Source of the DNA: a virus
Lineage: Duplodnaviria; Heunggongvirae; Uroviricota; Caudoviricetes
Strand: one strand, 5' to 3'
IMG/VR virus record: IMGVR_UViG_2698536610_000003
DNA: 33,876 bases
Shown here: in pieces, positions 319 through 32,437 of the stretch
Layout: each line of letters opens with the position of its first letter
Numbering within the stretch: position 1 is the stretch's first letter
Made by a program: the position numbers and the translations under genes
The notes under the pieces: generated by a model
What the model saw: the letters and a program-made list of their open reading frames with translations, nothing else
What the model was told of the DNA's origin: nothing
Database searches by the model: none

Positions 319-429
319 GAATATTTTTTGGTAAGCGTCAAACATGCGCGTTCTGGTTGTGCTTAGCCGGAACCTGTGCGAGCACGATGCCGTTACGTGA
401 AAGGCATCGTGCTATGAAGGGAGATTCTA

Positions 430-6410: not shown

Positions 6411-6539
6411 GGCTATTAGATTACGAATAAATACAGGTCTTATTGATGGATTGGGTAATAGTAAACTTTAAAAAATAATAATTGTAATGTTTTAAATTAT
6501 AGTTAAATTTCGCTTAATGACATTATCTTCTTAATATTT

Positions 6540-6569
6540 AAAGTGCCTCCCATTATTAGGGGGCACTTT
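6540..6569 (-). terminator. hairpin immediately downstream of the cargo operon (stem aaagtgcc/ggcacttt plus GC extension, 7-nt loop)
   Basis: Inverted repeat read directly, 17 nt past the PRTase stop on the minus strand, followed by an A/U-rich tract; sits between convergent A and cargo operon. Confidence 0.4.
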
Positions 6570-6585
6570 AAATTATGGGGTTAAT

Positions 6586-7869
6586 TTATTGTGGCCAGTC
6601 CCAGTTATCATATTGTTGAATTTTTTCTGATAACACTTGAGGTGCACTACCGTGAGTTACATTTTCAGCATAACCAATCGTACCGACATAGTTAATGTCA
6701 TCAACATCAAGTGTATTGGCCTCCCATGGCCGTATCTTGCGAGTTGGTTCACAGATAGAAACGTCACGATTGATGGTTTTTAACCACGATATATTTATTA
6801 CATTTGCGCCTGCAGCTTTTAGATACATTCTGGCTGTTTCATGAGCATTTCCTTCAGTGCAAAAATCATCAATAACTAATATTTTCTTACCTTTCAATTT
6901 AGGAGGGTTGGTATATCTTTCGCCGGTGATGAGGTTTTTAATAGGGGCAGGATTTAAATTAACGGTGTTTATTTGAGATGTGATGTTTACTTCTTGCTTA
7001 GCTATCCGAGCTTGCTGTGATTTAATAGCTGTTGTATGTCGTAAGAATAGATCTTTTAGATACTTTCCTTTGAATGAGACTGCTAAACCTTTTAGGTCAT
7101 GCTCCATAATGTTTGCTAGTTTATAAGGATCTTCAGCGTTATGTCCAACGTAGGTGGTTATAAAACTTGCTCCTTCACTTAAGCCAGAGAAATAAATGCT
7201 AGCACCAAGATATCTTATCCAAAAATCGGGGCTTCCAACCGATAGCTTTGCGAGGTCTCTTGCATTGGCTGAATACATTGTAAATTCAGGGACATATGTG
7301 CTAAATGGTGCTAAGGCGTAGTAGTGAACATCTTCATTAAAATGCCCTTGCCATCCCCACAACTGCTCTCTTAAGCAAAAAACATCAATAAATCTAGCGA
7401 TTTCTTTGGGTTCTGAAAATTGAAAACCGTACTCAGTAACCGGTTCATACCAGGTCGCATTAATAAATAGGGTATTCCCGTTGGTAGCTGCTTGTAAGTC
7501 TTCCTGAGAACGCCCTACATAGATCATTTCGTTTCGTTTTAATTCTAACGCAGCCATGATGAAATCTATGGCCTTCCCTGTTTGTTTTGCTGGTATGTTG
7601 TTGTCGAGTTCACGGCAAAAGTGAATTGATTCTGGGAATTTCCTTTTTAGGTATTCGTCTAGTGTTACGATCCCGTCATGTGTTCTCACGTTTCTATTTT
7701 TATTTGTCAAGAAGATAACTTTAATCCCTTTTGATGACAAAAACGCAAACAACTTACGTAATTCAGAATCGATTCTAGATTTTAGTTCCTGAGGTTGAGT
7801 GTTAGATGTTAATGGTAATACAACATCTGCGATTGAAAATATAACTGCCTTTAAATACATATTATTCAT
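6586..7869 (-). CDS. PRTase-domain protein (ComF-like) with possible HAD-like N-terminal region
   Basis: 427 aa; PRPP-binding-loop-like KILVIDDFCTEGNAHE at aa 329-344 (compare hhhhDDhhTTGgT); N-terminal 140 aa shows a HAD-like motif order (hhhh-Thr, Lys, GxxxED) but with the first Asp replaced; AT-rich; start ATG overlaps upstream gene as ATGAATAA. Confidence 0.75.
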   Translation of the reverse strand: MNNMYLKAVIFSIADVVLPLTSNTQPQELKSRIDSELRKLFAFLSSKGIKVIFLTNKNRNVRTHDGIVTLDEYLKRKFPESIHFCRELDNNIPAKQTGKAIDFIMAALELKRNEMIYVGRSQEDLQAATNGNTLFINATWYEPVTEYGFQFSEPKEIARFIDVFCLREQLWGWQGHFNEDVHYYALAPFSTYVPEFTMYSANARDLAKLSVGSPDFWIRYLGASIYFSGLSEGASFITTYVGHNAEDPYKLANIMEHDLKGLAVSFKGKYLKDLFLRHTTAIKSQQARIAKQEVNITSQINTVNLNPAPIKNLITGERYTNPPKLKGKKILVIDDFCTEGNAHETARMYLKAAGANVINISWLKTINRDVSICEPTRKIRPWEANTLDVDDINYVGTIGYAENVTHGSAPQVLSEKIQQYDNWDWPQ

Positions 7870-8911
7870 CTCCCAGAAGAGAAAGTTGCTGTGTTTTTAC
7901 ACCGGATGCTGATTTAATTAAGCTTTGCACGTCTTTAAAATCGGATAGTGGAATATTCATTATCGTAGCTGAGTACTCTGACAAGGCATGTTTAATCTCT
8001 TCTTGAGGTGTAGTTCCCCTAAGTAAAGGACAAAGTATCGCTCTTTTTAATTGAGCAGCATATCTCACAGTATGAGATGTCCCACTTTTTAGGCCCCATT
8101 CAACTGGGATCAATACATCACTTAAAGCTGCTTGAATTCTATTTCTACGAACAAAGTTTTCCTGTGATGGTTTTTGGTTTGGTAAATACTCAGTAAGAAT
8201 CAGTCCGCCATTATTTACAATATGGCCTCTCATCTCGCCACTATTTTTGGGATAATTTGAGTTTACGCCAGTACCTAACACAGCAATTGTCGGTATTTTA
8301 AATAACAGGGATGCTTCATGTGCAGATTGATCTATACCATATGCTAAACCGCTTACAGTTGAATAATCCGAATCTATAAATTGCGAGATTACTGCTTGAG
8401 TTAAATAAATTCCAAGTGCGGTTGGGTTTCTGGTGCCGACAACTCCAACACACTTTTTATCTAGCAAGGATACATTGCCTTGAGCAAACAACCAGAAAGG
8501 CGGCTCAGACAGGTCATTCAACTTGTCTGGATAGCTCGGAGAACCATAGTGGATGATTTTGTAACCACTATTATGATAATGTGTGAGTAATATTTTAGCC
8601 GTAGAAATCATGCTGTCCCGAAAAACAGACCAATTGCCTTCATTCAAATAATAAGGTTGGCGATGAAGTTTTACTCCAAGTAGATACTCAAAGTTGGCTA
8701 ATGTTTGACTGGTAACAATGTCTCTAAATCTGATTCCCTTTTGAGCAACTTTATATAGAGTCCAATAACTAACGCCATGTATTTCTGATAGTGCCAACAA
8801 AGCGGCACTTTCTGTGTTCCATCGAGCTGTTTCAATATCCGTCATAATGTTCGCCAAAATGGAAGATTTTTTATCGCTTTTATCATAGGTTTGTATAAAA
8901 GTGTAGCACAT
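7862..8911 (-). CDS. DprA/Smf-like Rossmann-fold protein
   Basis: 349 aa; core VSGLAYGIDQSAHEASL...TIAVLGTGVNSNYPKNS...FVRRNRIQAALSDVLIPVEWGLKSGTSHTVRYAAQLKRA parallels DprA Rossmann signature (SGxAxGID..AH..AL, AVLG.G....YP, RNRI.A.LS); N-terminal helical region; AT-rich. Confidence 0.8.
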   Translation of the reverse strand: MCYTFIQTYDKSDKKSSILANIMTDIETARWNTESAALLALSEIHGVSYWTLYKVAQKGIRFRDIVTSQTLANFEYLLGVKLHRQPYYLNEGNWSVFRDSMISTAKILLTHYHNSGYKIIHYGSPSYPDKLNDLSEPPFWLFAQGNVSLLDKKCVGVVGTRNPTALGIYLTQAVISQFIDSDYSTVSGLAYGIDQSAHEASLLFKIPTIAVLGTGVNSNYPKNSGEMRGHIVNNGGLILTEYLPNQKPSQENFVRRNRIQAALSDVLIPVEWGLKSGTSHTVRYAAQLKRAILCPLLRGTTPQEEIKHALSEYSATIMNIPLSDFKDVQSLIKSASGVKTQQLSLLGDE

Positions 8912-9049: not shown

Positions 9050-9068
9050 GGCGAGGCGGGGAAAGCAC
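9050..9068. other. cos: cos site, 19-nt cohesive end sequence ggcgaggcggggaaagcac
   Basis: Exact 19-mer that I recall as the P2 cohesive end, at the expected position between the accessory region and portal gene Q. Confidence 0.75.
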
Positions 9069-30299: not shown

Positions 30300-30779
30300 A
30301 TGATGCTCGCGTTAGGTATGTTTGTTTTTATGCGCCAGACGCTGCCACACCAGACCATGCAGCGTGAATCAGATTATCGCTGGCCGTCAAATTCCCGTAT
30401 AGGTAAACGGGATGCCTACCAGTTTCTCGGTGTGGGTGAGGAAAACATCACGCTTGCCGGTGTGCTTTATCCCGAACTGACCGGCGGCAAGCTGACGATG
30501 ACCACGCTCAGGCTGATGGCCGAGGGAGGCCGGGCGTGGCCGTTGCTGGATGGCACCGGCATGATTTACGGCATGTATGTCATCAGCAGGGTGAGTGAAA
30601 CAGGGAGTATTTTCTTTGCAGACGGCACACCCCGGAAAATTGATTTTACGCTGTCGCTCACCCGCGTTGATGAATCACTGGCCGCGCTTTATGGCGATAT
30701 CGGTAAACAGGCGGAATCGCTCATCGGTAAGGCTGGCAGTATGGCGACTAAATTCACGGGTATGACGGGGGCGGGATAA
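30300..30779 (+). CDS. U: tail protein U
   Basis: 159 aa, same size and position as P2 U. Confidence 0.9.
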   Translation: MMLALGMFVFMRQTLPHQTMQRESDYRWPSNSRIGKRDAYQFLGVGEENITLAGVLYPELTGGKLTMTTLRLMAEGGRAWPLLDGTGMIYGMYVISRVSETGSIFFADGTPRKIDFTLSLTRVDESLAALYGDIGKQAESLIGKAGSMATKFTGMTGAG

Positions 30780-32280: not shown

Positions 32281-32308
32281 TCGATGTGGTCAATGTGTGG
32301 ACGTGACC
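32281..32308. repeat. phage P-arm element tcgatgtggtcaatg...gacgtgaccag (candidate Int arm-type site), near-copy at 430..458
   Basis: Direct comparison with left flank; lies in the att P arm between the ogr terminator and the core. Confidence 0.5.
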
Positions 32309-32343
32309 AGAAATAAATCCTTTTATTTCATTGAATTACGCGT

Positions 32344-32370
32344 AAAAAATAAGCCCGTGTAAGGGAGATT
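32344..32370. repeat. attR: attR core (aaaaaataagcccgtgtaagggagatt), identical to 477..503
   Basis: Exact direct repeat of the left core; coincides with the 3' end of cyaR. Confidence 0.9.
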
Positions 32371-32430
32371 ACACAGGCTAAGGAGGTGGTTCCTGGTACA
32401 GCTAGCATTTTATGGGTTATGTTTTTCAGC
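32344..32430 (-). ncRNA. cyaR: CyaR (RyeE) small regulatory RNA, 87 nt
   Basis: Minus-strand sequence GCUGAAAAACAUAACCCAUAAAAUGCUAGCUGUACCAGGAACCACCUCCUUAGCCUGUGUAAUCUCCCUUACACGGGCUUAUUUUUU matches CyaR as I recall it, including the CACCUCCUUA seed region; located next to yegQ as in E. coli. Confidence 0.88.
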
Positions 32431-32437
32431 GAAACGG

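Follow-up and report, generated by a model that had tools for sequence, protein, structure and literature searches.

The perfect inverted repeat at positions 381-413 of the window (the whole 33,876-nt stretch of DNA that was analyzed) is host chromosome DNA outside the resident P2-like prophage, and the spacer between yegR and cyaR that contains it is, judging from the fragments recognizable in it, a layered P2/186-family scar of pre-cos, core, and P-arm pieces carried by essentially all E. coli. The hairpin is near-universal by descent, it has no U-tract on either strand, and changes that weaken its stem accumulate at about the background rate. We put at about an even chance the reading that the repeat is a by-product of this integration/deletion scar, inherited by descent and without a dedicated function, with only a passive effect on the RNAs that cross it.

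The inverted repeat and its locus

The features that define the locus are as follows:

Positions 1-318, + strand: yegR, 105 aa with a lipoprotein-type signal peptide, from the list of open reading frames and the RefSeq annotation of identical or near-identical DNA (protein YegR)
Positions 381-413, no strand assigned: hairpin, a perfect 11-bp inverted repeat with an 11-nt loop
Positions 477-503, + strand: P2 att core of 27 bp at the left junction of the resident P2-like prophage, an exact direct repeat with 32344-32370
Positions 583-1596, - strand: P2-type integrase of the resident prophage, a 337-aa ORF whose identical RefSeq DNA is annotated as a site-specific integrase
Positions 32344-32370, + strand: second copy of the att core at the right junction, within the cyaR 3' end, an exact repeat of 477-503
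Positions 32347-32432, - strand: CyaR_RyeE (Rfam), 100.7 bits

The left arm, AGCACGATGCC (381-391), and its exact reverse complement, GGCATCGTGCT (403-413), enclose the 11-nt loop GTTACGTGAAA (392-402). Both complementary 11-mers had been recognized in the earlier note, which set the right arm at 402-412 and the loop at 10 nt; these two values are corrected here. Seven of the 11 perfect stem pairs are G-C, and if one mismatch is allowed the arms extend to 14 nt (381-394 and 400-413) around a loop of 5 nt. Compared with dinucleotide shuffles, the 33-mer folds at -19.7 kcal/mol (z -5.7) as + strand RNA and at -18.8 kcal/mol (z about -5.7) as - strand RNA, and a 52-nt context folds at -24.6 kcal/mol (z -5.5) on the + strand and -21.3 kcal/mol (z -4.6) on the - strand. 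The sequence 3' of the stem is ATGAAGGGAGAT on the + strand and CGCACAGGTTCC on the - strand. Neither contains a U-tract (at least 5 U among the 8 nt directly 3' of the stem), and a terminator scan of positions 1-2200 called no site at the hairpin, results that agree with the earlier note both on the missing U-tract and on the conclusion that this is not a canonical intrinsic terminator.

Two perfect inverted repeats with arms of 11 bp or more and a loop of 3-20 nt are present in the window, compared with 0.15 expected per dinucleotide shuffle; 15% of the shuffles contained at least one such repeat. The count is unusual locally, yet the excess is modest, and simple extrapolation gives about 20 chance occurrences in a 5-Mb genome. 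The sole other such repeat in the window, at 6536-6573, has a 12-bp stem (ATTTAAAGTGCC and GGCACTTTAAAT) and a 14-nt loop, and is located just beyond the 3' end of the ShosT gene. ShosT (6586-7869, PADLOC E 4e-296) and the DprA-like ShosA (7862-8911, E 5e-231; Pfam DNA_processg_A 8e-60) make up a Shosta anti-phage defence pair on the - strand of the prophage (6586-8911), in a variable region adjoining the P2 cos sequence of the resident prophage at 9050-9068.

The hairpin lies 63 nt after the stop codon of yegR, downstream of that gene as the earlier note had it, and 64 nt before the att core at 477-503. It thus sits in the spacer between yegR and cyaR, which are convergent genes. The core sequence, AAAAAATAAGCCCGTGTAAGGGAGATT, is found in full only at 477-503 and 32344-32370 in the window. 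Beyond the left core the resident prophage carries the integrase gene and then repressor and cox genes, and an ogr-type gene precedes the right core, with ogr also annotated in related loci. Within the 3' end of int, the direct repeat TGTGGACAC is present twice, at 592-600 and 603-611, and a related pair, ATGTGGTCA and TGTGGACG, is present in the other arm at 32283-32305; we take both sets to be probable Int arm-type sites like those of P2 attP. The cyaR gene is a documented insertion site of P2-type prophages, and K-12 carries an 'ogr-D'' remnant there (PMC3032704, Table 2).

The hairpin is host chromosome DNA, because it lies to the left of the core at 477-503 and because the segment is found in lysogens and non-lysogens alike. 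It does not belong to the resident prophage, as non-lysogens, O111:H8 9662 and BLR(DE3) among them, also carry it, and it is not part of a P2 att core, as only the last 10 nt of the core recur beside it (417-426). The homology of the window to non-lysogen E. coli genomes stops at the core end, position 503, and in these genomes the segment runs directly into cyaR and yegQ/trhP. In MG1655 the palindrome occupies 2167894-2167926 and the annotated cryptic prophage PR-X occupies 2167183-2167811. The earlier note had placed the hairpin inside a putative remnant; traces of old phages do lie on both sides of it, but it is outside the resident prophage, which starts at 477-503, and outside PR-X of K-12.

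Two further observations concern the edges of this region. The host flank GGGCTTAT (465-472) pairs with ATAAGCCC (482-489) in the att core. The resulting - strand hairpin (-10.5 kcal/mol, z -3.4) draws on the 3' arm and the U-tract of the CyaR terminator and may, by this fold prediction, form an alternative structure immediately beyond the 3' end of CyaR. In many IMG/VR prophage contigs (L149, L156, L161, and others) the palindrome is located 382-412 nt (397-427 nt in some) from the contig end, as it is in the window. Prophage callers therefore routinely take yegR and the host spacer into P2-like prophage predictions.

Phage relics flanking the hairpin

Three segments of the 158-nt spacer resemble phage DNA:

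Positions 323-371, + strand: 186-homologous relic of a right-end (pre-cos) segment, matching phage 186 positions 30517-30565 at 78% identity over 49 nt
Positions 417-426, + strand: exact core-end copy AAGGGAGATT, the last 10 nt of the 27-bp att core, with a 10/10 match to 32361-32370
Positions 430-459, + strand: degenerate relic of a P2-type attP P arm (ogr-side), 87% over 31 nt to 32281-32310

The match of 323-371 to phage 186 has a local E of 4e-7 (small local database), and its counterpart lies 60-108 nt from the right cohesive end of 186. A first stem-loop, 350-358/365-373, is located inside this 186-like relic; the relic has a folding energy of -17.8 kcal/mol (z -4.2), and the corresponding 186 sequence is also hairpin-forming. 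In the representative of a non-coli Escherichia species (L012, YegR 91% identical), the 186 homology at 2044-2124 is longer, 81 nt, and reaches the cos cut site, after which a P-arm-like stretch and the core follow, so a decayed cos-proximal fragment lies next to yegR. In E. coli the homology to 186 breaks off at about 380, and the hairpin starts exactly there. L012 has yegR and lacks the hairpin (one such locus was sampled).

On the other side of the hairpin, the core-end copy at 417-426 begins 3 nt after the stem. The chance of finding any core 10-mer in the 158-nt spacer is estimated at about 0.003, and the copy may be what remains of an older attL core. The P-arm relic at 430-459 was the top match when 376-476 was compared with the remainder of the window (33 kb), with an E of 7e-4, and it is colinear with the core. 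Together, the two segments suggest an older attL core that was fused to a P arm via an internal deletion. The order of the elements in the spacer is pre-cos fragment, hairpin, core fragment, P-arm fragment, and core, which would be the expected residue of an older prophage in the same orientation after deletion of its interior.

Comparison of strains shows further deletions of this kind. In K-12 (L002/L144), homology to the window stops at 494, inside the core, and is followed by the D' pseudogene (yegZ), a truncated D gene. In strain E308 (L010), homology stops at about 369 and is followed by a truncated baseplate J gene, and the hairpin is lost. The deletion junctions of K-12 and E308 are independent, and new scars are still arising at the locus.

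The segment 300-503 is present as a single copy in 5418 of 5426 complete E. coli genomes. A YegR-based genome scan for orthologous flanks in other genera yielded 10 loci only, and in the Klebsiella sp. and Cedecea loci the DNA downstream of the yegR homologue is unrelated. In some E. coli lineages (FDAARGOS_1266, haplotypes h2, h6, and h9, and others), yegR is separated from the spacer by about 190 bp of extra DNA that looks like a degraded part of another small lipoprotein-like gene; this second gene is intact after the yegR homologue in Cedecea and in an Enterobacteriaceae MAG (L014 and L015).

Homologues of the hairpin itself were sought in several collections. Rfam gave no match at the hairpin, either in a permissive scan of 1-2000 or in a scan of the whole window at the gathering threshold, and CyaR was the only real hit. 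Local BLAST of the hairpin against the resident prophage gave no match. A BLAST search with 319-476 against a phage database of 50,697 records returned only the host-flank records vB_EcoM-720R8 and 'Phage TP' and the weak match to the pre-cos segment of phage 186, and a pattern scan of IMG/VR for the palindrome returned only copies from E. coli yegR flanks plus a few unrelated chance matches with other loops. The left end of P2 cos (AGCAC...GGTGCT) was compared by eye as a possible source and rejected, the likeness being confined to the 5-nt ends. Carriage of yegR as phage cargo was also unsupported, as tblastn against phages found host-flank records only. An overlapping ORF at 306-455 was rejected as a gene, given that it is variable in length, has mostly non-synonymous changes, and lacks its start in some haplotypes. 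The literature mentioning yegR contained nothing on the hairpin site.

Variation of the stem and transcript ends

Variation was assessed in 126 sequences comprising 40 haplotypes, which consisted of 120 metagenome loci fetched by a flank-only pattern and genome loci, minus four error-rich assemblies. The four (L016-L019), all E. coli/Shigella 'species representative' chromosomes, contain many single-base indels across yegR and the spacer and look like uncorrected long-read assemblies; they were left out of the variation counts. Variable sites were found at 3 of 22 stem positions, 3 of 11 loop positions, and 31 of 90 other spacer positions. Comparison of the stem with all other sites (3/22 versus 34/101, or 14% versus 34%) gave a Fisher p of 0.075-0.28, depending on the minor-allele cut-off. 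Among 127 sequences (window included), C390T occurs in 29, G403A in 11, and G411A in 2. No stem pair has a compensatory double change in any of the 126 loci; G403A arises on the C390T background, but affects the adjacent pair. The three stem changes, all of them transitions, each produce a wobble on one strand and a mismatch on the opposite one and are therefore uninformative as to strand preference.

Exact 33-nt haplotypes were counted in the 5426 complete genomes, with stabilities calculated for the + strand RNA, except for the triple change, which was counted in the sampled sequences:

Perfect stem with the loop of the window: 2531 genomes, -19.7 kcal/mol
Perfect stem with the K-12 loop: 1560 genomes, -19.7 kcal/mol
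C390T: 642 genomes, -17.0 kcal/mol
C390T + G403A: 288 genomes exact, plus 17 with one further mismatch (305), -13.2 kcal/mol
C390T + G403A + G411A: 2 of 127 sampled sequences, -6.5 kcal/mol (z -1.3)

The perfect stem is kept in about 75% of complete genomes, and the loop carries two common substitutions. A weakened stem is found in at least 17% of complete genomes, and + strand pairs are broken in 5.6%; the C390T + G403A haplotype includes ATCC 11775 and Nissle 1917. Pairing conserved beyond the background with compensatory changes was looked for and not seen in these sequences. A lack of conservation in related genomes had been named in the earlier note as grounds for dismissing the site; the hairpin is present almost throughout E. 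coli, yet its pairing is not specially protected. Weak purifying selection on the stem is possible, as stem variability is nominally below that of the flank in the 126-locus sample.

Transcript ends had been proposed as a further check on the hairpin, and the published maps for MG1655, a K-12 strain, list none at the site. Specifically, the curated Term-seq 3' ends for three growth conditions include none in 2167800-2167999 (PMC7815308). This absence may only reflect low expression of yegR and is weak negative evidence. Three further 3'-end studies provided no usable or matching supplementary data for the site.

A bicyclomycin-sensitive Rho termination region has been reported at MG1655 2167873 (+), with a Rho score of 3.19 and a p-value of 1.2e-6 (PMC7815308, Adams et al. 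2021, supplementary file 2), a coordinate that derives from comparisons of 800-nt windows and is coarse. This position is on the cyaR-sense strand and corresponds to about 434 on the - strand of the window; read along that strand, it precedes the hairpin by 21 nt. It falls between the att core and the hairpin in a C-rich stretch, where the - strand of 414-476 is C-rich and G-poor (C/G = 2.75) and the yegR-sense strand is G-rich. These data support Rho-dependent termination of transcripts running from the cyaR or prophage side toward yegR.

Origin, possible function, and comparison with known systems

Under the scar reading, earlier P2/186-family prophages would have integrated at the 3' end of cyaR, the known P2-like attachment site, and deletion of the interior would have left the pre-cos fragment on the left and the 10-nt core fragment and decayed P arm on the right. 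The inverted repeat would have arisen during this history of integration and deletion and become fixed early in E. coli. Any RNA crossing it would fold a stem-loop of about -20 kcal/mol, which in the yegR mRNA (+ strand) would slow 3'-to-5' exonucleases without terminating transcription. Several observations weigh against this account: perfect repeats of this length seldom arise by chance (0.15 expected per 34 kb), and far more seldom within a 158-nt spacer, about three quarters of complete genomes keep the stem perfect despite the substitutions in the loop, and the hairpin sequence has no homologue among those searched, so that its origin rests on what surrounds it. Among the options that the earlier note had offered, a phage leftover or scar is the best supported, an RNA stability element is possible and so far unsupported, and a protein binding site has found no support.

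A selected element in the yegR 3' UTR, in which the stem-loop together with the 350-373 hairpin would block 3'-to-5' exonucleases and set the mRNA 3' end after factor-dependent termination or processing downstream, is possible, though we regard it as doubtful. The hairpin is on the sense strand, very stable, and only 63 nt past the yegR stop; its stem is perfect in most genomes while the loop varies; and the commonest variant, C390T, retains a U.G pair on the + strand, with which the two G.U pairs of the first hairpin are also compatible. This reading is weakened by the lack of an MG1655 Term-seq 3' end and of covariation, by G403A and G411A, which break + strand pairs in up to 5.6% of complete genomes, and by the absence of strand preference among the three stem changes. 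Moreover, L012 has yegR without the hairpin, and the + strand is G-rich here and poor for Rho loading. If the - strand is considered instead, transcripts of cyaR, the K-12 remnant, or int would cross the tract from 476 to 414 and then meet the hairpin as a pause site or 3' protection, a Rho termination zone insulating yegR from antisense RNA. The C/G ratio of 2.75 in 414-476 and the published Rho region 21 nt upstream of the hairpin (PMC7815308) are in favor of such a zone. We nevertheless judge it unlikely, as the coordinate is coarse, Term-seq places no 3' end at the base of the stem on the - strand, C390T is an A.C mismatch on that strand in at least 17% of genomes, and the data are from K-12 only, in which the DNA upstream is the ogr-D' remnant. 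Rho termination also needs no hairpin, which is a non-defining part of such regions. A selected insulator at a phage-integration hot spot, in which the C-rich Rho-loading tract and the stem-loop would stop or trim read-out from cyaR or int and thereby shield yegR from antisense, seems to us very unlikely; by analogy, it might perhaps set int mRNA stability only when the prophage is integrated, as a host-side counterpart of lambda sib.

It is decidedly unlikely, in our estimate, that the repeat is a fossil of an older att site or sRNA-type terminator, with 400-426 a decayed core copy whose 5' part is now the right arm. The exact core-end copy 3 nt past the stem would fit, as would the P-arm relic beyond it, since an internal deletion joining an attL core to a P arm would give this order, and the present core offers a parallel in its GGGCTTAT/ATAAGCCC inverted repeat, followed after 3-4 nt by AAGGGAGATT. 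Without gaps, however, 400-426 agrees with the core at only 15 of 27 positions, and three indels are required to improve the alignment. The left arm is without a counterpart, and the - strand lacks a U-tract. As it addresses origin and not function, this reading is compatible with the scar reading. That a dimeric DNA-binding protein recognizes the repeat, through two 11-bp half-sites whose centres are 22 bp apart, is suggested only by the perfect dyad symmetry and seems highly improbable. The repeat lies between two convergent gene ends, and a weak match at 295-322 is the sole promoter-like sequence nearby; 11-bp half-sites with an 11-nt spacer are atypical; the sequence is single-copy, with no regulon-like recurrence and no phage or plasmid copies; and at least 17% of genomes carry a stem that departs from the symmetry.

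The picture of a layered scar is useful for setting prophage boundaries at the cyaR attachment site. The hairpin itself is a small example of a perfect palindrome in a phage scar without evidence of function, and it would be of modest regulatory interest only if it proved to shape the ends of yegR or int transcripts.

Among known systems, the hairpin resembles an intrinsic terminator in being a perfect, G+C-containing stem-loop shortly after a stop codon and between convergent genes, and differs from one in lacking a U-tract, in its 11-nt loop, in the negative terminator scan, and in the absence of a K-12 Term-seq 3' end. With stabilizing 3'-UTR stem-loops and REP-type palindromes it shares a stable, non-terminator stem-loop in a 3' UTR and the same passive mechanism. 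In contrast to stabilizing stem-loops, it shows no sign of a protected 3' end and no covariation, and in contrast to the multi-copy REP/BIME elements, it occurs at one place per genome, belongs to no Rfam family, and is presumably unlike the REP consensus. In phage lambda, sib is a hairpin across att that controls the decay of int mRNA. The hairpin could be likened to it in that, in a lysogen, it lies downstream of int, across the att core and on the int-sense strand, but it would differ in its host-side, as opposed to phage-side, position and in its 11-bp stem, which is too short for a typical RNase III site. The nearest described objects are the P2-like scars at the cyaR site, such as PR-X of K-12 (ogrK-yegZ, 'ogr-D''). 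The hairpin lies outside PR-X and has no detectable phage homologue, and the scar to which it belongs is older than PR-X and fixed throughout essentially all E. coli; the two scars have in common the locus and a history in which a prophage integrated at the 27-bp core and then lost internal DNA by imperfect deletion.
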